From IMG/VR virus record IMGVR_UViG_3300025723_000048, positions 1-55,867 of that record: a stretch of DNA of 55,867 nucleotides. One strand, written 5' to 3'. Source of the stretch: a virus (taxonomy: Duplodnaviria; Caudoviricetes). The notes under the pieces are model-generated. The model saw only the letters and a list, made by a program, of their open reading frames with translations. It made no database searches and was not told the origin of the DNA. A program made the position numbers and the translations under genes. Of this stretch, positions 3,530 to 28,389 are shown one piece after another (position 1 is the stretch's first letter; each line of letters starts with the position of its first letter).

Positions 3530-4053
3530 GTGTAAGTAACGCTTATCCGAATCTAATAGAAATACCATATAAGAAAACCTCTGTTGACATGGCAGAAGTT
3601 ATCTCTTATATTAATGAGACTAACTATCTAGTAGAAGTTAAACGAGCTTGTTATGTTTTATTTAGAAACGAATCAGGTAACGGTAACAACGGAGTATGTA
3701 ATAACTACATAGGCCTTCAAGCTGATGGAGCTAAGTCTGATGAGTTTGTATCTCCTAAGATTGTTGCTACTTGCGTACAGGCAGAGAACATGACAGGTAA
3801 ACAAAGAAGGTTTGCTTGTTTTAATTCATTTAAAGATTCTGTAGATGTTATAGAACATAACGTAATAAACAGAGGTATTTTTATAGGTGGTAAGTCTCAT
3901 CCATATTCAAACATAGATGTTAAGACACCTCATGATTTGGCATTAGCATATTATAAAGAATGGGTTATAGGAAGTTACAAAGCAACACCGGATGAAGGAT
4001 TTATAAATGACTTCATTTCGATGTACAACCAAGCTATCAACAAATTCAAATAA
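3526..4053 (+). CDS. Endolysin, divergent GH73/FlgJ-like glucosaminidase
   Basis: ESG.G...NNYIG...E...RF..F.S..DS pattern resembles the GH73 catalytic region; position after the spanin. Confidence 0.65.
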   Translation: MSVSNAYPNLIEIPYKKTSVDMAEVISYINETNYLVEVKRACYVLFRNESGNGNNGVCNNYIGLQADGAKSDEFVSPKIVATCVQAENMTGKQRRFACFNSFKDSVDVIEHNVINRGIFIGGKSHPYSNIDVKTPHDLALAYYKEWVIGSYKATPDEGFINDFISMYNQAINKFK

Positions 4054-4057
4054 ACAC

Positions 4058-5080
4058 ATGGCAAGACCAAAGAATCTTATAGTTGAGGAATATTGTTCTC
4101 AATTTAAGGAAATGAAAACGTACACATTAGCTAAGAAGATATTTGAAGAAAACCCTGGACTATATAAAAATCTACACAGTTGTAGAGGTGCAGTAGCAAA
4201 AAAAAGAGCAGCTTGGGGCAATAAGAATAGACATTTAGCTACTCATCCAAAGCCATTAAATTACGATACTACTAACTCTAAACCAAAGGTAGTAAACACA
4301 TCAGCTAAGGTTCTTATATTAGATATAGAGACTGCTCCATTAATGGCTTTTGTTTGGAACATATGGCAGCAGAACGTAGGTATACATCAAATAATAAATG
4401 ATTGGTTTTGTTTTACATGGGCTGCTAAATGGTTGTTTGAAGACAAAGTTTATTCAGGTAGATTAACAAGTAAGGAAGCCCTAGAGAAGGATGATAAAAG
4501 AATAATGGAAGGTGTTTGGGGTATGTTAAACGAGGCTGATATTGTCATAACTCACAACGGAGATAAGTTTGACTTACCTAAATTAAATACAAGATTCTTA
4601 TTACATGGGATGAAGCCTGTTTTACCTTATCAATCTATAGATACACTTAAGGCAGTTAAAAGAACACTAGCTTTTACTTCTAACAAACAGGAGTATATTA
4701 ATATGTCTTTAGGTACTGCTAGAAAAGTAGACACAGGTGGTTTTGAATTATGGGATAAATGTTACAAAGGAGATGTGGAAGCTCTTAAGAAAATGGAAGA
4801 ATATAACATTGGTGATGTAACTAGCCTAGAAGATAATTATCTTAAATTAAGGTCCTATATTAAGCCTCATCCTAACATGGGACTGTTTATATTAGACGAG
4901 CATGAAAGATGCCCTTCTTGTGGCTCTAATGAGCTTAAAGAGACAGGTAAGTTATATATGACTAGCGTAGCTTCTTACGAATCATTAAGATGTGATAATT
5001 GCGGTGGTGTAGGAAGAAGAAGGAAGTCTAATTTAACCGTAAACGAGAAAAGAAATATTTTATCATCAACACCGAGATAA
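4058..5080 (+). CDS. DEDD/RNase H-like 3'-5' exonuclease with C-terminal zinc ribbon
   Basis: LDIET, HNGDKFD, IDTL, YNIGDV motifs; CPSC...CDNC. Likely start ATG 4058. Confidence 0.85.
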   Translation: MARPKNLIVEEYCSQFKEMKTYTLAKKIFEENPGLYKNLHSCRGAVAKKRAAWGNKNRHLATHPKPLNYDTTNSKPKVVNTSAKVLILDIETAPLMAFVWNIWQQNVGIHQIINDWFCFTWAAKWLFEDKVYSGRLTSKEALEKDDKRIMEGVWGMLNEADIVITHNGDKFDLPKLNTRFLLHGMKPVLPYQSIDTLKAVKRTLAFTSNKQEYINMSLGTARKVDTGGFELWDKCYKGDVEALKKMEEYNIGDVTSLEDNYLKLRSYIKPHPNMGLFILDEHERCPSCGSNELKETGKLYMTSVASYESLRCDNCGGVGRRRKSNLTVNEKRNILSSTPR

Positions 5081-5271
5081 TGAGCAAACTGCAAGAAAGT
5101 GTAATAAATGACATGAGGCAAAGAGAAGAAAGGGGGTTAAAGAAATATGGTACGGATATGGACCGTACAGATTTAACCTTAAGAGAGTGGCTTCAACACG
5201 CATACGAAGAAAGTTTAGATAAATCGTTATACCTTAAAGCAGCAATTAGAGAACTAGACAATAAGAAATAA
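5080..5271 (+). CDS. Small all-alpha protein, MazG/NTP-PPase-like
   Basis: KKYG...WLQHAYEESLD...YL motif. Confidence 0.5.
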   Translation: MSKLQESVINDMRQREERGLKKYGTDMDRTDLTLREWLQHAYEESLDKSLYLKAAIRELDNKK

Positions 5272-5811: not shown

Positions 5812-7672
<1,861 letters not shown>

Positions 7673-10557: not shown

Positions 10558-10959
10558 TTAATTTAAATTGTTCATTTCTTGTTTACAGTATGATAATGCC
10601 GAACGAAGTATATCTATTTGGTAGTGCATCTCTTTAATTAGCAGCTCACTTACATTATCCCAAAAGCTAACATCTCCTATCTCAGAACTAAGTACAGACT
10701 TCTTTTCCATAGCTCCCATATTCTCCATATTTAACTTAGTAAGTTTTCTAAGAGTAAACTTTTCAGTAAGATAAGTAAGCATAGCCTTAGATTGAGCTGC
10801 TAGTGCCTGTACGGATTGTATATCAGATAATTGATTAAGTACAGCCATAGGATTACTCATATCAACCTTATTAGCTATCACCTTCCTAACAGATTCGTGC
10901 ATAGCCAATGCTTTTTCAAATCTTTCTTGTAGTGCGTCTTCTTCAAATATTTTTTTCAT
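10558..10959 (-). CDS. Hypothetical helical protein
   Basis: ORF track; operon packing. Confidence 0.7.
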   Translation of the reverse strand: MKKIFEEDALQERFEKALAMHESVRKVIANKVDMSNPMAVLNQLSDIQSVQALAAQSKAMLTYLTEKFTLRKLTKLNMENMGAMEKKSVLSSEIGDVSFWDNVSELLIKEMHYQIDILRSALSYCKQEMNNLN

Positions 10960-10960
10960 G

Positions 10961-11191
10961 TTATTTTTTTCTTAAAGATTTATCAGGTTTACTAGATATT
11001 AAAACTAATATAATAAACCCTATTATTAGAGCTGCTAAGGCCCATAAACCCCATTGGTGGATAGTAGTGTTAGTTAGTCCATTATAAATAAATCTAAGCA
11101 AATATTCTGCTAAATATATTATCAAACTAATGATAGATAATATTATTGTTAATATAATAATAGCATTTATATTTTCTATTATCTTATTCAT
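10961..11191 (-). CDS. Small two-TM membrane protein
   Basis: Two hydrophobic segments. Confidence 0.65.
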   Translation of the reverse strand: MNKIIENINAIIILTIILSIISLIIYLAEYLLRFIYNGLTNTTIHQWGLWALAALIIGFIILVLISSKPDKSLRKK

Positions 11192-11192
11192 T

Positions 11193-11405
11193 CTACATTA
11201 AATATTTTTTATCGTAATAATCTTCCCCATCTATAAATTCTATAGCCGGGTTAACTGCTTGATAGAATCCATCATCATGGGACTTTACTATCATGTTTCT
11301 TTCTTTCTTTGTAAGTACAGTCATATTTAAAGACAACCATTCTATGAATCTTTCCTTATCCATAGAGTGAAGTTTAATTATTATGTCTTGAATAGGTGTT
11401 GTCAT
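11193..11405 (-). CDS. Small protein, distant paralogue of the MKTAM cassette genes
   Basis: MTTPIQ...KKER..I..S..DG...GEDYY..KY parallels MKTAM...KEKEQI...YYNQTY. Confidence 0.65.
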   Translation of the reverse strand: MTTPIQDIIIKLHSMDKERFIEWLSLNMTVLTKKERNMIVKSHDDGFYQAVNPAIEFIDGEDYYDKKYLM

Positions 11406-11776
11406 ATATTTAAAATTTTATCAGCTTTTTTCTCCCAACCAGGATTAGTAACATTAACTCCCTTAATACCTGTACCATGTAATAAACTAATCTCAGTAGC
11501 GTTGTCATCAAAGTGAAGAGCTGCTTTATATCCCTTTAACTTATCAGCTTTCCAATTATGATTAGTAAAGTGTATATTCTCTTTATTTATTCCTAACTTC
11601 TTAGCAGTACTATAAAGGTCTGCATTACTAGCACTATGAGGATATAAATGCTTTAACTTATCTTCATATCTAGAAGTAACAATAATAACATCAATACCTT
11701 TATCTATTAGCTTCTTAGCATAATTTTGAACTGCTTTAGTAGATAGGGTAGAATCATAGTCAAAACTTACTTTCAT
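11402..11776 (-). CDS. HAD-superfamily phosphatase
   Basis: SFDYDSTL (DxD), IVTSR, K, HFDDN motifs I-IV. Confidence 0.85.
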   Translation of the reverse strand: MKVSFDYDSTLSTKAVQNYAKKLIDKGIDVIIVTSRYEDKLKHLYPHSASNADLYSTAKKLGINKENIHFTNHNWKADKLKGYKAALHFDDNATEISLLHGTGIKGVNVTNPGWEKKADKILNI

Positions 11777-11871
11777 AACTTAAATAATATAAAGTATAAG
11801 ATTTTCAATATAGCTGCTGTAATTATACCTATTGCTAGAGTAACAAAAGCTGCTTGTATTATTTTTCTCAT
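11773..11871 (-). CDS. 32-aa hydrophobic peptide (not in ORF track)
   Basis: MRKIIQAAFVTLAIGIITAAILKILYFILFKL*; ATGA overlap with next gene. Confidence 0.55.
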   Translation of the reverse strand: MRKIIQAAFVTLAIGIITAAILKILYFILFKL

Positions 11872-11877
11872 AAAGTT

Positions 11878-12087
11878 TTATTGAATGTGTCTAACTGCAA
11901 ATGTCTTGTCTAATCTTTCTATGTATAATTTTCTTTTACTATTAATTGAAGTTCTTATTTTATTCTCTGTAAGACCTAACCTAGCAGCAGCAAACTTAAT
12001 TGATTCATATACTACTGCTTTTTCTAACCTTTCTTCAAGTGGTAAAGATAAGTCATATAATGCTATTCTAAAATTATTATTTAACAT
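11878..12087 (-). CDS. Small HTH (NUMOD1-like) DNA-binding protein
   Basis: YESIKFAAARLGL...IR pattern. Confidence 0.55.
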   Translation of the reverse strand: MLNNNFRIALYDLSLPLEERLEKAVVYESIKFAAARLGLTENKIRTSINSKRKLYIERLDKTFAVRHIQ

Positions 12088-12129
12088 AATTAACTATTAT
12101 TAAGTATATTTTTAAATTTAATTACCAAA

Positions 12130-12497
12130 GAGTTTAAGAGTTTGTAGAAAGTAGGTAAGGAAAAAGTAAAGTTTACCTCCCCTCCCCGGTAGAGATAAAC
12201 TTACTCCCTTACCAAACTACCAAATGAGATAATGAGATGCGTCAAGTGAGGCTGACTGGATTACGAAGTTTCCCCATATCCAGTCATTTAAAAGGTTAAT
12301 GTCAGGATTGTTGTCCTTTATGCCCTAGGCCTAGAAAGACTATGTCTTTTTCAACCTGCGAATAGCCATATTGCTTTTGACTATCTTCCAAATAAAAAAC
12401 CCACCAAGTACAAGTTGATGGGCTGATTAGAGGGCTAATTTGCATTAGTTCTTTAACAAAGCCCGATAATGTACTTGTACTACTTCATCGGAATTGC
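12130..12497 (-). ncRNA. Candidate structured non-coding RNA / attenuator
   Basis: Region lacks a long ORF and follows a full promoter; several hairpins, two with complementary loops, and a U-tailed terminator stem. Confidence 0.55.
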
Positions 12498-12501
12498 ATG
12501 A

Positions 12502-12532
12502 CAAATATACGAACATATTTTATACTACCAAA
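12502..12532 (-). promoter_or_regulatory. Bacteroidota promoter (-33 TTTG, 19 nt, -7 TATATTTG)
   Basis: Matches TTTG-N19-TAnnTTTG. Confidence 0.85.
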
Positions 12533-12535
12533 CTT

Positions 12536-12784
12536 CTACCAAATTTTTATTAAATTATTTTTATCAAACAACATCTTAAGCTCATACTTAGAATCATATA
12601 GCTTCACTAAGTGATTTACAAGCCCTTCCTTAGACTTTCCTTCTTTAAACAACTTAAGCTCTAACAAGTACATAAACTCGGTAAAATTGTAATCTTTATG
12701 TCCCTCATCTTTATAGCAGCTATATATGAATGAACCATCAAATCTTCCGGTACTTCTGTATTGAATATATTCTTCTCTTGTCAT
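12536..12784 (-). CDS. Hypothetical protein
   Basis: ORF track. Confidence 0.65.
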   Translation of the reverse strand: MTREEYIQYRSTGRFDGSFIYSCYKDEGHKDYNFTEFMYLLELKLFKEGKSKEGLVNHLVKLYDSKYELKMLFDKNNLIKIW

Positions 12785-12800
12785 AATATGATTTATTAAG

Positions 12801-12840
12801 TTTTGCTGAAATTTGCTAAGTTTTGCTAAAATTTGCTAAA
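12801..12840. repeat. Four tandem 10-bp repeats (TTTGCT-based)
   Basis: ttttgctgaa atttgctaag ttttgctaaa atttgctaaa. Confidence 0.85.
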
Positions 12841-12876
12841 GGTGCTAATACCAAGTTACCTATTCGTAATTCATTG

Positions 12877-13068
12877 TTATTTATCATAAATATTTATTAT
12901 TGTTTTAATTAAAGTAACTATCCACCAAGAGAAAGGGATAAGAAAATAGAAAGTAAAGTTTATCTTTTTGTATTGTAAAGAACATCCTTTCATATTTGAA
13001 GCATCTAGTATTAAAGAGCCATAATAAAGGAAAATAAAAGGGAACGAAAGAATAAATATTATTTCCAT
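12877..13068 (-). CDS. Small two-TM membrane protein
   Basis: Hydrophobic N- and C-terminal segments. Confidence 0.6.
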   Translation of the reverse strand: MEIIFILSFPFIFLYYGSLILDASNMKGCSLQYKKINFTFYFLIPFSWWIVTLIKTIINIYDK

Positions 13069-13170
13069 TGTTTTATTTTTTATTGTTTTTTAGTCTTGCA
13101 TACATGATTTAGTTCCATCTGGGTTTTTATCGTAGGTTTTTTTGTCGTTTCCATTAACTAACTTACCTAC

Positions 13171-13404
13171 TATCGGCTCAAATAATATCCCTTATTATAC
13201 GCATTAAGATATAATTTATCCCTTTTATGACACATTATATCTTTTAACGTATAAAAAGTTTGCAAAAAGTAGCAGTTTTCACTATCTTTCGCAAAATTAT
13301 AATATCCTGTTGTACCTAAATTATATACTCTTGTAATAAAGTAAGGGTAAAATGTAATAATTCTTGTAACAAAGTGAGCCAAATAAATAAATTATTCAGC
13401 TCAT
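13171..13404. promoter_or_regulatory. Cluster of operator-like quasi-palindromes
   Basis: Three 18-bp sites of 5-N8-5 form, a direct repeat CTTGTAAYAAAGT and TGAGC/GCTCA arms. Confidence 0.4.
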
Positions 13405-13408
13405 AATA

Positions 13409-13585
13409 TTAATCTAAAAATATCTTTAAAGTCTTTTTCCCATCCTGATACACTATTTCTAATACTTCAAAATCTCCTAACTCCTTATACAAAGTTAACA
13501 ACCTGCCAAAAGGCTTATCATTCTTTGCATGGTTTATTATTTCTAATCTTGTTATTTCTACTGGTTTTTTTTCTTCTTGTTTCAT
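13409..13585 (-). CDS. 58-aa hypothetical protein (not in ORF track)
   Basis: MKQEEKKPVEITRLEIINHAK...YQDGKKTLKIFLD*. Confidence 0.7.
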   Translation of the reverse strand: MKQEEKKPVEITRLEIINHAKNDKPFGRLLTLYKELGDFEVLEIVYQDGKKTLKIFLD

Positions 13586-13594
13586 GGTTTAATT

Positions 13595-13798
13595 TTATAG
13601 GTTTTCTATTTCTTTTTTAACTTCTTGCCAATATTCTGTATCAACAGGAACATACCACACTACGCTTAATATTTCATCTACTGCTATTAATGCAAATTTC
13701 TTAGCTTGATATATTGGTCTATTTATATTAGGTGTTATAGTTAATAATTGCTGCTTAAACTCATCAACTAATTCTTGTGCCTTATCTTTAGCTGTCAT
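13595..13798 (-). CDS. Small hypothetical protein (accessory)
   Basis: MTAKDKAQELV...ALIAVDEIL...YWQEVKKEIENL. Confidence 0.75.
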   Translation of the reverse strand: MTAKDKAQELVDEFKQQLLTITPNINRPIYQAKKFALIAVDEILSVVWYVPVDTEYWQEVKKEIENL

Positions 13799-13804
13799 AA
13801 CTTA

Positions 13805-14380
13805 TTATTTTAAATATTTTGGTTTAAGTATTCGTTCATAGTAATCTATAACCTCTTCTTTGCCATCCTTACTACTTCTCCATGTTGCTGGAGCTTCTTT
13901 TCTACATTGCTCTATCCTTTCACGTTTGGATTTAGTTTTATCTGCATTATACTCATAATATAACCATGCTTCCCAATAGTGAGAGCCATAAGGACTGTAA
14001 AATGTTAATGCTATTTGATAACCAAAGAACACAAATGATAATACAGGATTCCATTCATGTCTATAATCAGTATCACTCCATTTTGTTTTCCAACCTAAAC
14101 TACAATAACTAAATCCTATTTTAAGTGGAACTGCTTTTGTATAGTTATAATACATATTATATAGTTGTGCATCAGACACTAATACTTTATTCTTATTGGC
14201 CTTATGTTCCTCTATTGCTTTTTGTATATCTTGCTCATTATATTTAACCCATTTTCTAGGGTAAAAGTATGGTACACCTATTTGTGTTTTACCTGCATAC
14301 AAATTAACTTTGAATGGTTTGAATGGACTATTCAATATTTTTAACCATCTAAAACGCTCTAGTGTGTATTTTAAATTCAT
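13805..14380 (-). CDS. Hypothetical aromatic-rich protein (cassette)
   Basis: Starts within the 17-bp junction repeat. Confidence 0.75.
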   Translation of the reverse strand: MNLKYTLERFRWLKILNSPFKPFKVNLYAGKTQIGVPYFYPRKWVKYNEQDIQKAIEEHKANKNKVLVSDAQLYNMYYNYTKAVPLKIGFSYCSLGWKTKWSDTDYRHEWNPVLSFVFFGYQIALTFYSPYGSHYWEAWLYYEYNADKTKSKRERIEQCRKEAPATWRSSKDGKEEVIDYYERILKPKYLK

Positions 14381-14383
14381 AGG

Positions 14384-14599
14384 TTATTTGTTTTGGTTAT
14401 AGGTTTGATTATAATATTCTTCTGCTGGCATATATATACCTTCAATCCCATCAATATAACTGTTGCATATCTGAGCTTTTTCTTCTCCAAGTGCCTCCTT
14501 AATTATTTCATCATTATCATGGTAAAAAGCTAAAGCATATAATGAATCACCTGTTTTCATAGCTAACTTTTCAATAAATTCTGTCATTGCTGTTTTCAT
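14384..14599 (-). CDS. Cassette gene, MKTAM family paralogue 1
   Basis: MKTAM...EKAQI...YYNQTYNQNK; bounded by junction repeats. Confidence 0.8.
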   Translation of the reverse strand: MKTAMTEFIEKLAMKTGDSLYALAFYHDNDEIIKEALGEEKAQICNSYIDGIEGIYMPAEEYYNQTYNQNK

Positions 14600-14602
14600 A
14601 GG

Positions 14603-14968
14603 TTATTTGTTTTTAGCTATTTCAATTAGTTTCTTAAGACATTCAAGCTCTGTTTCTTCGTATGTATTGTAATAATCGGAAAGAATTGGTTTGTTTGGAT
14701 GCCACCTAATATAAAATTCATAAACATCTTTATCGTGGCTAGTGATATCTATAAGAAATCCTTTCTCCCTAAAAAACCGAAATGCTTGTTGGTAGAGTGG
14801 TAATGCTGCCCAAGTAGATTGCACAGTTTCGCTATTTCTTATAAAATCATACATTTCACTTCCATAATCAATATTGCTATACATATCCATAGCAGCAAAA
14901 CACTTTTCATCAAAACCTAATTCTTTAAGTTCTAATGCTTGTTCATAAGAGATAAATTCTCTATTCAT
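14603..14968 (-). CDS. Cassette gene, hypothetical
   Basis: MNREFISYEQALELKELGFDE.C...LYQQAFRFFREK; bounded by junction repeats. Confidence 0.8.
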   Translation of the reverse strand: MNREFISYEQALELKELGFDEKCFAAMDMYSNIDYGSEMYDFIRNSETVQSTWAALPLYQQAFRFFREKGFLIDITSHDKDVYEFYIRWHPNKPILSDYYNTYEETELECLKKLIEIAKNK

Positions 14969-14971
14969 AGG

Positions 14972-15232
14972 TTATTTGTTTTGGTTATAGGTTTGGTTGT
15001 AGTAATAATTGCCGTTATCTTTTTCTTCATCTTCATTAGTATAATCATTTGAGCCAACAACGCAACCAGTGCTATATCCTTTTTCCCAAGCATCTATTAT
15101 CTGCTCTTTTTCTTTTTCAAGGTAAAGGTTATCTATATAGTCAATTATTCTTTTGGAAGCATTTTCAGTAATAAAACCTAATTGTTTTTCAATTAGAATA
15201 TCATCCTTTAAATATTGCATTGCTGTTTTCAT
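14972..15232 (-). CDS. Cassette gene, MKTAM family paralogue 2
   Basis: MKTAM...KEKEQIIDAW...YYNQTYNQNK. Confidence 0.8.
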   Translation of the reverse strand: MKTAMQYLKDDILIEKQLGFITENASKRIIDYIDNLYLEKEKEQIIDAWEKGYSTGCVVGSNDYTNEDEEKDNGNYYYNQTYNQNK

Positions 15233-15245
15233 AGGTTATTTGTTT

Positions 15246-15461
15246 TTAGTTTACTATTATATCATCTAAGTCAACATCCTCTCCTTGTGTTTGTTTATAC
15301 ACAGTAGTAAAGAACTGACCTAGTAGTTTATAATCTTCATCTATGAAATTACAAAAATCAAATGCAGGTATTGCACCTTTTATTGTAGGTTGAATAACTT
15401 TATCGTAATGAGCATCAGGGTCATAATGAAAAATGACATTACCTCTAAATATGTATTTCAT
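15246..15461 (-). CDS. Cassette gene, hypothetical
   Basis: Bounded by junction repeats. Confidence 0.75.
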   Translation of the reverse strand: MKYIFRGNVIFHYDPDAHYDKVIQPTIKGAIPAFDFCNFIDEDYKLLGQFFTTVYKQTQGEDVDLDDIIVN

Positions 15462-15471
15462 AGGTTATTTG

Positions 15472-16113
15472 TTAAAAATATTTAGATAATTTCTTTCTGA
15501 ATGATTTAGAAATATTACTTATTTTAGGGAAAACAAACAAATCATTAGGATTGACTGTTAAATAAGCCTGTACTTCATCTTTAAAGACTTTACTATCATA
15601 TCCCATCATTTCAAGCTCAGAGCAAATGTATCTATATAACTTCTTATCTATCTGAGATATTAACTTATTAGCATCCCTCTTATAATCTTTGTTAGTATAA
15701 TATAAAGCATGACATAACTCATGCTCAAAGGTTTCTCCTTTTAACGTACCTATACCCATTATATAAGACTTATCACTAACTTTATAAGTAAGTAAAATTT
15801 CATTAAGTATATTACAAAATATAACATCGTAAGCTGTCTCAGTTTCATTTATTAATTTTTTAGCTACCTTGAAAGGAACATTAAATCCATCCCAATCAAT
15901 AGTGTAATTAAATGAGTCACCTTTACTGTACCACTTAACAAACTCCCATATAGAAAATATCCTACCCTTAAACTCAGGAGACTCATAAAACTCCTGAGCC
16001 TTAAGGAATAGCATACACCTATCGTAAGTGTCCGGGACTACTACTGCGAATATATCTTTTTTAATTTCGTGTATCTTGTAGTCTATTTTCATATTAAAAA
16101 GGTATTGATTCAA
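15472..16113 (-). CDS. Hypothetical protein with HEXXH metalloprotease motif
   Basis: TFEHELCHALYY with downstream DEVQAY; start may be the MKIDY Met at 16092. Confidence 0.7.
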   Translation of the reverse strand: MNQYLFNMKIDYKIHEIKKDIFAVVVPDTYDRCMLFLKAQEFYESPEFKGRIFSIWEFVKWYSKGDSFNYTIDWDGFNVPFKVAKKLINETETAYDVIFCNILNEILLTYKVSDKSYIMGIGTLKGETFEHELCHALYYTNKDYKRDANKLISQIDKKLYRYICSELEMMGYDSKVFKDEVQAYLTVNPNDLFVFPKISNISKSFRKKLSKYF

Positions 16114-17962
16114 TTTCCATTAGAGCATCATCCTCAGTAGGAGCATGATACATAATCTTAGTAGCAGCCTTTAAATAAGTTCTAGTTATAGGCAGATGGC
16201 CCTCTTCATCTGTAAACTCTAAACCCTTATTCATCTTTATCTTTATAGCCTGGTTTCTAGGGGTGACATCACCACCTGTCTCCTTGTTCCTCATCTTATT
16301 AATATACAGTTCAGTTATCATCCACGTTGCAGGGTCTTGTATATTTCTATTCATTGTAATAAAGATGTCAGCCTTGTTATAAAGAACTGCTCCTCCATCA
16401 GCGTCAGCAGGATAAGGCATTAACTGATTACCATTGCTATCTCTTTCTCTCTGTGACTGTGTCCTTGTATGAATAGATATAAACAATGTAATGTTAGACC
16501 TCTTAGTAAATAGCAGCATATCTGTGTACATCTCCATCTCATAGTCATATTTAGAAGCCTTGTCAGTAGTCTTAAGAGCGTTGATAGGGTCGATGAATAC
16601 TCCTTTGATAGAATGATACTTAGATACTTTCTCTGTGTAGTTTAAGATGTCTTTATATCCGTGCATATTCTCATTGTTAATAAAGAAGAACCTTTCGTTG
16701 AGCCACTTGATACCTTGTTGAAGATTATCTTCATAAGACTCTTTAATCTTAGTACCCATGTAGAACTCTAGTATCTTCATCTTAACAGATGCAACCCTAT
16801 TCTCTCCGGTATAAATAACCCATCCCCAATCATACTTAAGAGCTGACAAGAATATAAGCCAAAGGTTTACAGTAGTCTTACCTGTGTGGCTATGAGATAG
16901 TGTAGCATAGAACTCACCTTCTTTAAGCAGCAAATACTTATCCATGTCTTCGTAACCAAAAGGTAATCCCATCGGTATAAGACCGGCCTTGTATCTCCTT
17001 ATAAACTCTTCATCATTAGGATTAGAAGATAAGAAGCTAAGCTCCTCCTCCATTATCCCTGCTTCCTCCATTACCTCTTGCTGATACCTTGCTAACTCAT
17101 TTATAGGCATATACTGACCCTGCCTTATTCCGTCATCTATGGCCCTAAACTCATCCTCTATATCCTTGCCTTCAAACTTATTGTATACCTCGTGCCTAAG
17201 TACCTCCCTGGCTATTGCCTCTTCCACTATACCACCTGCAATGTAACCACCTATAAGATAAGAAGACTTTATAACTGCATTATGCCTCATCCCCGTCTCT
17301 GCGGACCGTATCATCTTAGCAGCTATATCCAACTTCTTATAGTCAGTAGTTATCTGCGTCATCTTAATACCTTCAAACTTCTCCTCTTCAAGTACCTCAA
17401 AGAAAGTCTTACTGTCTTCTTTTATTAAGATTTCAGGGTCATAAGAAAAGAATAGAACTCTAGATGGGTTCCTAGCGGAAGGGTCAAACATTGGATACCT
17501 CTTAAGTAAGGCTGCGTAATGTTGCTCATGCTTATTACCGTCAGCTATCTTAATTAATCCATGTACACCTGTACCCGATGGAGACTTCCATACTGCATGG
17601 ATAAACTCATCCTGAATTATATCTTTTTTAAATCTATCTACATCATCTACATCATCTACATCAAAAGGTACTAACCTAGAGTGTATTGAAAGAGAGTTGT
17701 CGTTTCTAAAACTCTTAAAGAATGTTCCATTATCTCTTTGCTTTGTTATAGGTATATCAAAGGCTCCGGCAAATAAAACGCAAGGCAACTGCATCTTCAA
17801 CTTCTTAATCTCTGCATCATCTTTGCAGCTCCTTATATTATCTATCTGACTCTTACATTTACCATCTCTTATACCATTAATAACTGCATCTAATGAAACG
17901 TATGAAGGTTGGTCAACCTCACTGAATACCTTGAAGACTGTTATCTTGTTCATAAATTTCAT
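16094..17962 (-). CDS. Primase-helicase (VirE-N/BT4734-like primase plus DnaB-like SF4 helicase)
   Basis: K..LP...F.G.F, D.DD, SPSG.G.H in the N-domain; SHSHTGKTT Walker A, FIDP Walker B, H...KAD....R and K.R motifs. Confidence 0.88.
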   Translation of the reverse strand: MKFMNKITVFKVFSEVDQPSYVSLDAVINGIRDGKCKSQIDNIRSCKDDAEIKKLKMQLPCVLFAGAFDIPITKQRDNGTFFKSFRNDNSLSIHSRLVPFDVDDVDDVDRFKKDIIQDEFIHAVWKSPSGTGVHGLIKIADGNKHEQHYAALLKRYPMFDPSARNPSRVLFFSYDPEILIKEDSKTFFEVLEEEKFEGIKMTQITTDYKKLDIAAKMIRSAETGMRHNAVIKSSYLIGGYIAGGIVEEAIAREVLRHEVYNKFEGKDIEDEFRAIDDGIRQGQYMPINELARYQQEVMEEAGIMEEELSFLSSNPNDEEFIRRYKAGLIPMGLPFGYEDMDKYLLLKEGEFYATLSHSHTGKTTVNLWLIFLSALKYDWGWVIYTGENRVASVKMKILEFYMGTKIKESYEDNLQQGIKWLNERFFFINNENMHGYKDILNYTEKVSKYHSIKGVFIDPINALKTTDKASKYDYEMEMYTDMLLFTKRSNITLFISIHTRTQSQRERDSNGNQLMPYPADADGGAVLYNKADIFITMNRNIQDPATWMITELYINKMRNKETGGDVTPRNQAIKIKMNKGLEFTDEEGHLPITRTYLKAATKIMYHAPTEDDALMEIESIPF

Positions 17963-18452: not shown

Positions 18453-19211
18453 TTATTTTACCCATGGCGGTAGATTTATTATTCTTTTATTGCCGTTGAA
18501 CTTATCCCAAAACTCATAAGCCATATCAAAAGATTCCGGATGCTCCAACGCATAGTTAAAAGCAACACACAATCTTTCTAATGTTGACTTACCATAGTCA
18601 ATAAAGTTCTGAGAGATAGGCAACAGTCCGTTATAATAAGGCTCGTTCTTCTCAATGATATAGAAGCTAAAATCTCCTCCGTAAATTGCAGCCTGTAAGT
18701 AGTATTGATAATTAAAGAAGTCCTTTGTAATAGTCTCTAATGAGGCATTTTGAACACTCTTAATATCAATAGTCCTGTCACCGATAGATATGTCCTTAAT
18801 TATAACGAAAGGCAATCCAAAAATCTCTTTGTACTCTCTAGTCTCTACAACAGGATTAGCAGACATTAAGTCTCTAAAGTCTTTATTGCTCCTTACTAAC
18901 TCTACTAAGTTGAATACTTCCTCATGTAAGTCCTGCTGAACAATAGTCTTACCAATAGATTCCTCAACCATTTTATCATACTCAGCTTTATCATCTTTCT
19001 TCCTCATGTCAAACTTCCTACTTATTATATACTCATCATTGAACTTTGTAGGCTCTAATAACATAGAGTGAAGTAGCTGCCCGAATAAAAGTTCGGGTGT
19101 CTGCTTTCTAGGCTTGTTTAAGTAATTAATATAATGCTTAGGTGATACTGCAAAAGCCTTTAAGGAACTATAACTTAACGGTCTTTCTTTTAAACTATCT
19201 AATGTTATCAT
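18453..19211 (-). CDS. RecE/ExoVIII-like PD-(D/E)XK exonuclease
   Basis: LSYSSLK, FG.L.H..LLEP, KD...IDIKS, Y.LQAA.Y. Confidence 0.85.
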   Translation of the reverse strand: MITLDSLKERPLSYSSLKAFAVSPKHYINYLNKPRKQTPELLFGQLLHSMLLEPTKFNDEYIISRKFDMRKKDDKAEYDKMVEESIGKTIVQQDLHEEVFNLVELVRSNKDFRDLMSANPVVETREYKEIFGLPFVIIKDISIGDRTIDIKSVQNASLETITKDFFNYQYYLQAAIYGGDFSFYIIEKNEPYYNGLLPISQNFIDYGKSTLERLCVAFNYALEHPESFDMAYEFWDKFNGNKRIINLPPWVK

Positions 19212-19319: not shown

Positions 19320-19844
19320 TTATTTAGTTAATAGGTCTGCTACTTTTTTACTCACGTTGTATTTCTGCCTAACTTGTGACATTGTAAAGCCATTAGATAG
19401 GGCATCTTTAACCTTTGTGAACTCAGGTGTGTTCTCGTTCAACCAAACTTTATTATCCGGTTCTGCCTGGGATGCTGCGTTACCATCATCATCTTCGTCT
19501 TCAATGATAAGGTTAAGTATACCTGACAAGGAATATCTCTTAGCGTAAGAAACGGCTGAGCCATACTCCTGAGCGGTATTCTTAGATACTACTATTGGAA
19601 AAATTGATTGGATATACTCTCCTGACTCTACATGATACAAGGTAGTACATACATAAGGCAGACCATCGTTAATTGTGTTAGCCTGTGTAATAAGCAGCCC
19701 GCTCTTCTCTAGATACGGTTTAATGTGTGACTGAATAGAATGTAATTGAGCGTACTTTGACTTAAAAAAGGGGTTGTCTGCTTCCTTCTTAACTGCTGGG
19801 CATTGTTTGTCGAAAGCAGCTAGTGCTTTTAATAGATTTTTCAT
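19320..19844 (-). CDS. erf: ERF-family single-strand annealing recombinase
   Basis: NPFFKSKYA.L, H.ESGE, Q..GSA.SYAKRY.L, DDDGN. Confidence 0.92.
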   Translation of the reverse strand: MKNLLKALAAFDKQCPAVKKEADNPFFKSKYAQLHSIQSHIKPYLEKSGLLITQANTINDGLPYVCTTLYHVESGEYIQSIFPIVVSKNTAQEYGSAVSYAKRYSLSGILNLIIEDEDDDGNAASQAEPDNKVWLNENTPEFTKVKDALSNGFTMSQVRQKYNVSKKVADLLTK

Positions 19845-27451: not shown

Positions 27452-27711
27452 ACTGTTACATCTGCAACAAGCACGTTCACAAGGCTTTAAAGTCTAGTGG
27501 GATAAGTTTTGGATACTGTGATGAGCACGCTCATACTGTACAGATAGGTGTTGTTAAATTTATACTACACCATACTCTAGCTCAGTTAAATGAGGACAAG
27601 ATAAGATACTATGAGGCACAGAAGGGAGCTGCTTCTATTGAGTTTAACAAACAAAAAGAAATGCTTAATGAGTTATTCGACGAGGACCAATACACGGAAC
27701 AAGGCTTCTAA
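27448..27711 (+). CDS. Small zinc-finger protein
   Basis: CYIC...YCDEH. Confidence 0.65.
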   Translation: MNCYICNKHVHKALKSSGISFGYCDEHAHTVQIGVVKFILHHTLAQLNEDKIRYYEAQKGAASIEFNKQKEMLNELFDEDQYTEQGF

Positions 27712-28108
27712 GAAACCTAAGACAACTAGAAGTAGCACAAAGAAGATAACAAAAGAATCGTTACCTGATATGTTAAAGAAGACTCAGGTAGTGTTTAACA
27801 GATATATAAGAAATAGGGATGAGGGGTTACAATGTATTTCTTGCGGAAGTAATGCCGGCAATCAGGCAGGACACTATTTCCCGGTAAAGGGATTCTCCGC
27901 TTTGAGGTATGACGAATGGAATGTAAATTTGCAATGTGCAGGATGTAACTTATTTTTACACGGTAACCAGGCAATGTATAGAATAGGCCTTGTAAATAAG
28001 ATAGGTGAGAAAGCAGTTAAAGAGTTGGAAGGTATAGCCATAAAGAATAGAGTTAAGAAATGGTCTATAGAGGAGTTAAAAGGAATAATTAAAAAGTATG
28101 ATATATGA
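27668..28108 (+). CDS. ninG: NinG/Rap-like HNH endonuclease
   Basis: Q.VFN.YIR.RD...CISCG...AGHY.......LRYDE.NV..QC..CN....GN...YR..L; likely start ATG 27668. Confidence 0.9.
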   Translation: MSYSTRTNTRNKASKKPKTTRSSTKKITKESLPDMLKKTQVVFNRYIRNRDEGLQCISCGSNAGNQAGHYFPVKGFSALRYDEWNVNLQCAGCNLFLHGNQAMYRIGLVNKIGEKAVKELEGIAIKNRVKKWSIEELKGIIKKYDI

Positions 28109-28389
28109 GTTCAGCTTGGCAAAAAAAAGAAGGTAAGAATCCTGAGGGAGGTCTAAATGCAAAAGGTAGAGCTTCCTATAATAAAGAAACAGGTGGCCAT
28201 TTGAAAGCTCCTGTTAAGAGTGGTACTAATCCTAGGAGGGTATCTTTTGCAGCTAGATTTGCTGCTATGAAAGGGCCTATGAAAAAACCAAATGGAGAGC
28301 CTACTAGAAAAGCATTAGCTTTGAAGGCTTGGGGATTTGGTAGTGTAGAGTCTGCCAAGAAATTTGCTAACGCTCATAAAAAGAAATAG
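28105..28389 (+). CDS. Conserved small basic phage protein (DUF6321-like)
   Basis: AWQ.KEGKNP.GGLN.KGR.SY...RR.SF.AR...G...R.ALAL..WG. Confidence 0.7.
   Translation: MSSAWQKKEGKNPEGGLNAKGRASYNKETGGHLKAPVKSGTNPRRVSFAARFAAMKGPMKKPNGEPTRKALALKAWGFGSVESAKKFANAHKKK

Follow-up and report, generated by a model that had tools for sequence, protein, structure and literature searches.

A stop/start junction shared by otherwise unlike phage lineages probably doubles as a homology handle for the exchange of accessory genes

The window analyzed here is the whole of the IMG/VR virus record IMGVR_UViG_3300025723_000048, which comprises 55,867 bp and is about 89% complete. Its minus strand carries an array of small genes joined by five exact copies of a 17-nt sequence, AACAAATAACCTATGAA, which forms the core of a 24-nt junction at which one gene ends and the next one begins. 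The reading that we favor, to which we assign a probability of about 0.7, is that this junction is the stop/restart signal of a promoter-less early operon and at the same time serves as a 24–50 nt homology handle for homologous recombination. Comparison establishes the repeats and their spread, the variability of the arrays, the breakpoints at the junction, and the lack of an integrase, hairpin, or promoter; we infer the enzymes, the translational restart, and the roles of the individual gene cassettes.

The five copies are located on the minus strand at 14376–14392, 14595–14611, 14964–14980, 15228–15244, and 15457–15473 (junctions J1 to J5). Each of them supplies the ATG of the next open reading frame (ORF; B, C, D, E, and F, respectively, from J5 to J1). 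At J3, J2, and J1, the TAA within the motif is also the stop codon of the preceding gene (...NQNK*, ...KNK*, and ...NQNK*), at J5 the upstream stop codon overlaps the first two bases of the motif, and at J4 it is located 1 nt ahead of the motif. J2 and J4 are identical over 32 nt (14585–14616 and 15218–15249, 100%), J1 and J3 are identical over 33 nt, within a 49-nt stretch that is 88% alike, and cassettes C and E are paralogues that belong to one blastp family and are 42% identical when aligned. The original prediction, which was made from the sequence alone, had described the five exact copies, the supply of the ATG, the three ...NK* ends, the 32 and 33 bp identities, and the paralogy of C and E, and every element of this description holds. 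When up to three mismatches were allowed, AACAAATAACCTATGAA gave 8 matches versus 0.74 expected, a number that was reached in 0 of 100 shuffles, and no sixth copy with at most one mismatch was found anywhere in the whole virus record. The array and its surroundings, in the direction of transcription, are as follows (L numbers denote viral loci):

15472–16092, minus strand: gene A, 206 aa from its ATG, the last non-cassette gene ahead of the array; 100% identical in L281; no match in Pfam or PHROG.
15457–15473, minus strand: junction J5, 17-nt core; the stop codon of gene A overlaps its first 2 bases; ATG of B at 15459–15461.
15246–15461, minus strand: cassette B, 71 aa; 86% nucleotide identity with the otherwise unrelated L070, exactly from J5 to J4.
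15228–15244, minus strand: junction J4; stop codon of B 1 nt upstream; ATG of C; together with the MKTAM codons (to 15218) the left breakpoint versus L281.
14972–15232, minus strand: cassette C, 86 aa, MKTAM...YYNQTYNQNK family (F0); mosaic.
15087–15126, minus strand: internal constant block of C, LEKEKEQIIDAW; conserved at the nucleotide level in many contigs; mosaic breakpoint.
14964–14987, minus strand: junction J3, full 24-nt consensus TAACCAAAACAAATAACCTATGAA; the internal TAA stops C; ATG of D.
14603–14968, minus strand: cassette D, 121 aa, phrog_25117; homologues in L016, L046, L027, and L108 have other neighbours.
14595–14611, minus strand: junction J2; the internal TAA stops D; ATG of E; 32 nt the same as J4.
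14384–14599, minus strand: cassette E, 71 aa, second F0 paralogue; 42% identical to C.
14376–14399, minus strand: junction J1, full 24-nt consensus; the internal TAA stops E; ATG of F; 33 nt the same as J3.
13805–14380, minus strand: cassette F, 191 aa; family present in 56 viral loci.
13595–13798, minus strand: small gene, 67 aa, phrog_21441, family F3; decayed junction AATAAGTTATG; F3 is preceded by a junction elsewhere; right breakpoint versus L281 at about 13631.
13409–13585, minus strand: small gene, 58 aa, like family F7, end of the array; behind a shortened junction CCTATAAAATTAAACCATG.
10961–16092, minus strand: hyperplastic stretch; 5.1 kb here versus about 400 bp in L007 (between the homologue of 10558–10959 and the primase).

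No function could be assigned to the cassettes from Pfam or PHROGs, and Rfam and tRNA scans of the window found nothing.

Across 165 copies, the junction has a 24-nt consensus, TAACCAAAACAAATAACCTATGAA, which is composed of the 17-mer and seven upstream bases, TAACCAA, that are conserved at 61–93% per position. All 165 copies stand in the same register to the ATG. The 24-mer contains a stop codon in each frame, namely, TAA at positions 1–3, TAA at positions 14–16, and the TGA of ATGA. Among 142 successive junction pairs, the upstream ORF ends 3 nt ahead of the following ATG in 61, at the first TAA in 11, and in an ATGA overlap in 6, so that junction-internal stops are used in 78 of the 142 pairs. 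Because the upstream frames stop within the junction, unrelated proteins end in a motif-encoded ...(Q)NK. The 24-mer spans the region from stop codon to ATG and therefore leaves no space for a promoter within the repeat. In addition, a scan for TAnnTTTG, which we take to be the −7 promoter box of Bacteroidetes, gave no minus-strand match at any of the five junctions, the nearest matches being located at 15630 and 13497. Neither local inverted repeats nor a stable stem-loop was found at the junctions, and the predicted folding energies of the junction RNA are 0 to −1.7 kcal/mol for four of them and −4.9 kcal/mol for J5 (z from −0.7 to +1.2). A genome-wide start signal, an option that the original prediction had itself raised, was ruled out: within the window, TAACCTATG occurs only at the five junction sites, its one-mismatch variants are present at chance level (23 versus 22 expected), and the AACAAATAACCTATGAA motif is absent from all 69 other listed gene starts.

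The junction is not confined to the window. A scan of IMG/VR with the 17-mer retrieved at least 120 stretches with an exact match; these and the window, 121 sequences altogether, are the basis of the locus counts given below. One copy is present in 92 sequences, two in 19, three in 6, four in 3, and five only in the window, so that 29 of the 121 sequences hold 2–5 copies. A search that kept the ATG invariant and tolerated up to 6 mismatches gave 264 copies versus 5 in a reversed-sequence control (1.08 Mb). For 28 larger records and up to 2 mismatches, the numbers were 65 versus 4 in the control, and within each record the matches all share a strand and are grouped in one or two clusters. Bacterial and archaeal genomes (596 Gb) gave 122 matches to the 17-mer, only 8 of which have at most one mismatch in the seven upstream bases, versus 91 of 160 viral copies. 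A single host-genome case has more than one copy, namely, a 19-kb contig with 4 copies that was binned with a metagenome-assembled genome (MAG) of Sediminibacterium. Because the upstream consensus is rare among the host-genome matches, the junction belongs to phages rather than to their hosts. An origin from host sequences was thus ruled out; the matches look like chance, save for a few probable phage contigs in MAGs.

The carriers of the junction are diverse. The 12 near-complete records and the window fall into at least four groups that share 0–6 proteins of at least 100 aa: seven phages, each about 34 kb long; G005 and G010, to which the window is distantly related; G008 and G014 (about 105–110 kb); and G020 alone. 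No protein family is common to all 13 near-complete carriers, the most widely shared one being the F0 (MKTAM) cassette, which was found in 10 of the 13. By primase similarity, the nearest cultured phages infect Maribacter, Cellulophaga, and Flavobacterium (about 32% amino acid identity). These nearest primases and the gene starts without Shine-Dalgarno (SD) motifs suggest that the host of this freshwater phage belongs to the Bacteroidota; it is probably a strain of the Flavobacteriia or Chitinophagia from freshwater. In GenBank phages (50,697 records), no similar DNA was found, with the exception of two 60–75 nt matches in uncultured phages; the junction together with the MKTAM 3′ block yielded nothing meaningful (best E 0.08, Campylobacter and Lactobacillus phages), and protein C had no tblastn match in these records. 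Among the matches listed in a literature search of main texts, there was no account of the junction or of the F0 family, and the listed papers with one of the motif strings dealt with unrelated matters such as primers.

The genes behind the junction are small and of many kinds. The median length of the 264 ORFs that start at a junction is 68 aa. Single-linkage clustering of the 230 that reach 30 aa gave 101 families, of which F0 is the largest with 60 members. Nearly every contig has an array with a content and order of its own. There are 89 distinct ordered family pairs among the 95 directly adjacent pairs, just 4 of which recur, and the set found in the window (B-type, F0, D-type, F0, F-type) was not seen in any other locus examined. 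The proposal that this is a cassette array with a portable junction is supported. Two strain-level pairs, described below, differ by whole cassettes although their flanks are 99–99.9% identical. A fixed gene order in relatives was not observed; for example, the gene set of L281 differs from that of the window from J4 on. Family F (191 aa) extends far beyond the arrays: its members occur in 56 viral loci, the longest contig measuring 254 kb, and the junction is nearly always missing. The start was examined in 34 of the 56 loci; only L284 has the junction, and L290 has a variant that is one base shorter. The F protein has no match in Pfam or PHROG. We conclude that F is a widespread phage gene that was captured into the array of the window. 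As a further observation on cassette content, L281 contains a gene for a 38-aa hydrophobic peptide (6110–6226) as a cassette between two junction copies, and similar tiny membrane-like cassettes (families F2 and F8) recur in other arrays.

The breakpoints between related sequences suggest where exchanges took place. L281 is 98.98% identical to the window over 6004 nt and 99.5% over 3716 nt. At the place where the array of the window reads A, B, C, D, E, F, that of L281 reads A, B, F0a (81 aa), the 38-aa membrane-like peptide, F0b (71 aa), F0c (81 aa), and the homologue of 13595–13798. In the alignment of the two, 281 of the first 283 columns are identical through J4 and the MKTAM codons (window position 15218), and then the similarity collapses. 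In a second strain-level pair, L040 and L089, the flanks are 99.9% identical, and the differing segment contains one F0 gene in L040 versus a different F0 gene and another cassette in L089. This segment is bounded by the junction and MKTAMQEL on the left side and by the junction on the right side. Cassette B shares 86% DNA identity with L070 over window positions 15473–15231, that is, exactly from J5 to J4, and none of the other 73 ORFs of the window has a match in L070. Across unrelated loci, similarity ends within 15 nt of the junction center in 416 of 2835 cases versus 29 of 2835 for random positions. Gene C is itself a mosaic, with a 5′ half that is 84% like L069 and a 3′ half that is 98% like L072. 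The switch point is the internal block at 15087–15126, LEKEKEQIIDAW, which is 93–100% conserved over 24–40 nt in many contigs.

The closest relatives of the window by core genes, L007 and L042 (primase 64% and a 651-aa protein 71% identical to those of the window), carry junction arrays of differing content elsewhere in the genome, in the interval that separates the homologues of 4007–5080 and 5080–5271. Four junction-started genes are present there in L007, two in L042, and none in the window. The 5080 locus represents another hyperplastic slot of this type of phage. It extends over 4700–5600 in L007 and 3380–3860 in L042 (about 5080 in the window), between an exonuclease-like gene and the homologue of 5080–5271, and the window has a plain ATGA overlap at this site.

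Freshwater sequencing runs were also analyzed, namely, Logan contigs of 24 runs with the region, and no RNA run was among the listed runs with the region. The contigs end at each junction and accumulate there, a behavior typical of repeats in assembly graphs. Joints between 14413–14422 and 15088–15096 and from 15121 back to 14563, which might be taken for deletions, were rejected as such; they belong to other MKTAM members with the same constant blocks. Runs X1 and X13 were inspected over 13000–16600. In X13, the summed depth is 280–480 in the bins with junctions or MKTAM blocks versus about 4–6 in the flanks. Because of this excess, far more abundant phages in the same lake must carry these blocks. 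A 313-nt contig of run X6 (freshwater, 2012) has L281-type joints, from 13631 to 13668 and from 13794 to a J3/J1-type junction, with a side of 37 nt, and lends weak support to the L281-type joint.

The F0 family, with at least 172 homologues that are all unnamed, shows the same combination of frozen and exchanged parts on a smaller scale. Its members are built from three constant blocks (MKTAMQELI, LEKEKEQIIDA, and YYNQTYNQNK), between which two variable modules are combined in many ways; one of the N-modules, for instance, pairs with four distinct C-modules, and one of the C-modules with numerous N-modules. Codons that end in C and are rare in these phages are fixed in the part of the 3′ block beyond the 24-mer (TAC in 11 of 14, AAC in 13 of 15, and ACC in 11 of 13 cases, versus backgrounds of 26, 26, and 12%, respectively), and GCA accounts for 45 of 46 cases at the 5′ end, versus a background of 45%. 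The constant blocks are frozen even at synonymous sites, and the modules are freely recombined. The predicted model of C consists of three helices (pLDDT 82) and has no match in the PDB at E ≤ 0.001.

The window encodes a set of recombination genes outside of the array:

19320–19844, minus strand: Erf-family single-strand annealing protein (PF04404, 96 bits versus a cut-off of 25, E 2.8e-27; phrog_2324, phrog_155).
18453–19211, minus strand: PD-(D/E)XK exonuclease (DUF3799; phrog_412 ‘exonuclease VIII’).
27611–28108, plus strand: NinG/Rap-family protein, recombination gene set (PF05766).
28105–28389, plus strand: DUF6321 protein, 83–89% identical in 11 junction-bearing loci.

The DUF6321 protein is conserved far above the level of the core genes. 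A tyrosine or serine recombinase (PF00589, PF00239) was not found at E ≤ 0.01 in the whole record, which is about 89% complete, and the controls were positive; thus, the earlier statement that there is no recognizable integrase holds. The original prediction had further attributed the shuffling of the array to an Erf/RecE pair. The two genes are real, and their tie to the junction is not supported, because 5 of the 12 near-complete carriers lack ERF, and hence Erf is not required. Of the 12, 7 have ERF and 4 have DUF6321, the latter being four of the five without ERF; either of them as an obligatory partner was ruled out on these counts. Two of the five ERF-less carriers have a RecA-family gene, and AAA_24 was detected only below the cut-off, in two. 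In three of the five, none of the five tested recombinase families was found above the cut-off (one with a weak AAA_24 match), and RecT and Rad52 are absent from all five genomes.

The mechanism that we propose would operate at two levels. At the mRNA level, the junction would act as an adaptor that ends the upstream frame, whichever frame this is, and offers the next ATG, with a restart 3 nt later. This ATG would be placed behind an unstructured leader that contains no G and has adenines at −14 to −11, a type of leader used by the SD-blind ribosomes of Bacteroidia. At the DNA level, the adaptor would provide a perfect homology of 24 nt, which the constant ends of the MKTAM genes would extend to 32–50 nt. 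General homologous recombination could cross over there, between co-infecting phages or between copies within one genome. In the window, the likely enzymes would be Erf, the PD-(D/E)XK exonuclease, and NinG, and elsewhere a RecA-type protein or a host enzyme might act. Each crossover would replace, add, or remove whole genes, and a working junction would stay behind, so that cassettes that keep the adaptor would remain exchangeable. We propose that this exchangeability, and not selection for expression alone, is the reason for the letter-perfect identity of the junction in otherwise unlike lineages. The lengths fit such recombination: a minimal efficient pairing length of 23–27 bp for Red-beta and of 31–34 bp for RecA, as well as recombination by a phage Erf/Exo pair that is as efficient as that by Red, have been described in the relevant parts of PMC3945230.

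Several observations weigh against this reading. The bare adaptor of 24 nt is at the lower edge of the known pairing lengths. Only one of the two strain-level pairs (L040/L089) breaks at the linker on both sides, whereas the other (L281/window) does so only on the left; on its right end, L281 is a patchwork within gene 13595–13798 and becomes near-identical again from 13631. Among the internal ends of high-scoring segment pairs with at least 95% identity in junction-bearing loci, only 4 of 19 are located within 40 nt of a junction. The junction is a preferred crossover point and not the sole one, and crossovers also use other conserved blocks, such as the internal MKTAM block and the conserved part of gene 13595–13798. 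Genes do not need the junction, because most homologues of F lack it, and the homologue of 5080–5271 has a junction in L007 and none in the window. With C at −3 and T at −6, the junction is devoid of A at −3 and −6 and is therefore not an optimal start site, and the non-junction starts of the phage are equally unstructured. Lastly, the host is one that we infer, and all of the evidence is comparative and comes from assembled contigs.

The first alternative is that the junction is purely translational, i.e., a restart or enhancer leader for ribosomes that work without SD motifs, that it is kept by selection for expression, and that recombination at it is incidental. The fixed register to the ATG and the use of the motif stops in 78 of the 142 successive pairs are consistent with this view, and so are the properties of the leader. 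The 74 listed gene starts of the phage have A at −12 and −11 in 76–81% of the cases and no SD motif, and these generic starts resemble the 3′ half of the junction (AAATAAC..ATG). The junction itself reads AAAA at −14 to −11, within a leader that is G-free and unstructured, and adenines at these positions stimulate initiation in F. johnsoniae (PMC6847099, in the part that deals with them). However, according to the same part of that source, A at −3 and A at −6 are positive determinants of initiation in Bacteroidia, and the junction has neither. In addition, 17–24 nt are letter-perfect across lineages, far above what is seen at the 69 other starts, the same gene families are expressed without the junction, and MKTAM coding blocks that are far from any start are also conserved at the nucleotide level and are also breakpoints. 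We therefore regard a purely translational role as unlikely. Compared with the initiation regions without SD motifs described for Bacteroidia, the junction shares the A-run at −14 to −11, the unstructured leader, and the missing SD motif, and it differs in having no A at −3 or −6 and in its exact 24-nt identity, which is atypical of ordinary initiation regions.

A second alternative is that the junction is the binding site of a phage regulator, either RegA-like on the RNA or stoperator-like on the DNA, and is conserved together with that protein. The stoperators of cluster A mycobacteriophages and the RegA sites of T4 are spread over the genome and are bound by a phage repressor. Like the junction, they are short, asymmetric sites of one orientation that overlap stop and start codons of many genes. 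The single orientation of the junction relative to transcription, its overlap with stop and start codons, and the clustering of its copies in early genes would fit such a site, and a host factor could take the place of the phage protein. In contrast to stoperators and RegA sites, however, the junction copies are local rather than genome-wide, being confined in the window to one array of 1.1 kb, and none of the protein families extends to all 13 near-complete carriers, the best candidates being ERF and DUF6321 with the counts given above. A regulator site thus appears quite improbable.

Even less credence is given to a third alternative, namely, that the junction is a mere scar of tandem duplications of MKTAM genes, composed of their 3′ end and their 5′ end, and has no present role. 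The upstream half of the junction indeed encodes ...YNQNK* and the downstream half MK(TAM), which are the ends of the largest family (60 of the 230 ORFs), and C and E are paralogous. However, F0 is present on either side in only 42 of the 95 adjacent pairs, and the junctions of the other 53 join two non-MKTAM genes. Moreover, the exact identity persists beside coding flanks that are diverged or unrelated, synonymous sites are frozen on rare codons, and very recent exchanges break on the junction.

A true site-specific, integron-like system with a recombinase of an unrecognized family acting on the motif, to which promoter-less cassettes in one orientation, an identical boundary site, and the many ORFs without known function in these phages might point, is hardly credible, given that no tyrosine or serine recombinase was found in the record, that the site has no inverted repeat or hairpin, that no protein is common to all carriers, and that crossovers also occur at other conserved blocks, as homology-driven exchange predicts.

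Integron cassettes carry attC sites, imperfect inverted repeats that fold into a hairpin, and are moved by the integrase IntI. The array resembles them in that its cassettes are promoter-less, oriented in one direction, composed of single genes of varied content, and delimited by a common boundary site. It differs in that neither IntI nor any tyrosine or serine recombinase was found, in that the site of 24 nt has no attC-type inverted repeats, in that the exchange looks homology-driven, and in that the carrier is a phage genome of the lytic type. The label integron-like, which had been applied to the array, is therefore adequate as an analogy and fails with respect to the attC-type hairpin and IntI.

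The closest known system is, instead, that of the promoter early stem-loops (PeSLs) of T4-type phages, together with the boundary sequences of the modular theory. As described in the parts of PMC2839356 and PMC4122927 that deal with them, PeSLs are repeated intergenic motifs in hyperplastic regions that are located directly upstream of small ORFans and extend from the stop codon of one gene to the start codon of the next, and homologous recombination between copies explains insertions, deletions, and replacements among close relatives. The junction shares these features, and such recombination is likewise the probable explanation here. Minicircles have been demonstrated for PeSLs in the same sources. 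PeSLs, however, consist of sigma-70 promoters, a stem-loop terminator, and an SD motif, so that each cassette is its own transcription unit (PMC2839356), whereas the junction comprises 24 nt within one operon and has neither promoter nor hairpin nor SD motif. Furthermore, PeSLs are, in those accounts, found within one phage family, whereas the junction is letter-perfect in at least four unrelated lineages of phages that presumably infect Bacteroidota. Boundary or linker sequences, as treated in the relevant part of PMC3029335, are short conserved sequences at gene boundaries where homologous recombination joins unrelated modules and with which the similarity breakpoints coincide, as is the case here; the difference is that a single sequence flanks about 100 families in at least 120 contigs and is, in addition, a stop/start signal. 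Having no recombinase, inverted repeat, hairpin, or promoter, the junction is neither an integron site nor a PeSL in the strict sense.

Two further features of the window lie outside the array. The region 12130–12520 on the minus strand is non-coding, relatively G+C-rich, and preceded at a short distance by a TATATTTG box (12509). Its predicted folding energy of −110 kcal/mol (z −4.5) was matched by 0 of 100 shuffles, and it has no match in Rfam; judged from this predicted fold, it may be a phage-encoded structured RNA. TAnnTTTG-type boxes (TATATTTG, TACATTTG) are present about 15–25 nt ahead of several ATGs (genes 6071/7663 on the minus strand, 26829, 30900, 36152, 37642, and 52823). Their totals, 54 and 30 per strand versus about 37 in shuffles, show no overall excess. 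These boxes resemble what we take to be the −7 element of Bacteroidetes.

The junction bears on an old dispute on phage mosaicism, that is, whether mosaics arise by homologous exchange at short linkers or by random illegitimate joins followed by selection. Linkers are rarely identifiable at mosaic boundaries, as stated in the pertinent section of PMC3029335. Here, one linker is traceable through at least 120 contigs, about 100 families, and at least four lineages, with strain pairs caught before and after an exchange, and the linker model is therefore directly testable in a natural community. Its design, with neither promoter nor terminator and with a stop codon in every frame followed by a restart without an SD motif, is not described for PeSLs in the accounts cited above, and suits hosts with ribosomes that ignore SD motifs. 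The junction may also serve to locate accessory genes in uncultured phages, among them possible host-takeover or anti-defence genes, and it is a possible natural docking site for the engineering of such phages. More tentatively, with somewhat less than even odds, the junction might be a community-wide exchange standard: unrelated phages of the same freshwater bacteria, putatively Bacteroidota, would keep one adaptor, so that any small gene carrying it would be movable into any of them by ordinary homologous recombination and would be expressed at once, and the mixing of two modules between three frozen blocks in the MKTAM family would then suggest a diversifying system, e.g., for specificity in host takeover or counter-defence, with the linkers as joints. 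If this is true, the junction would be an integrase-free counterpart of the integron at the level of the metacommunity.

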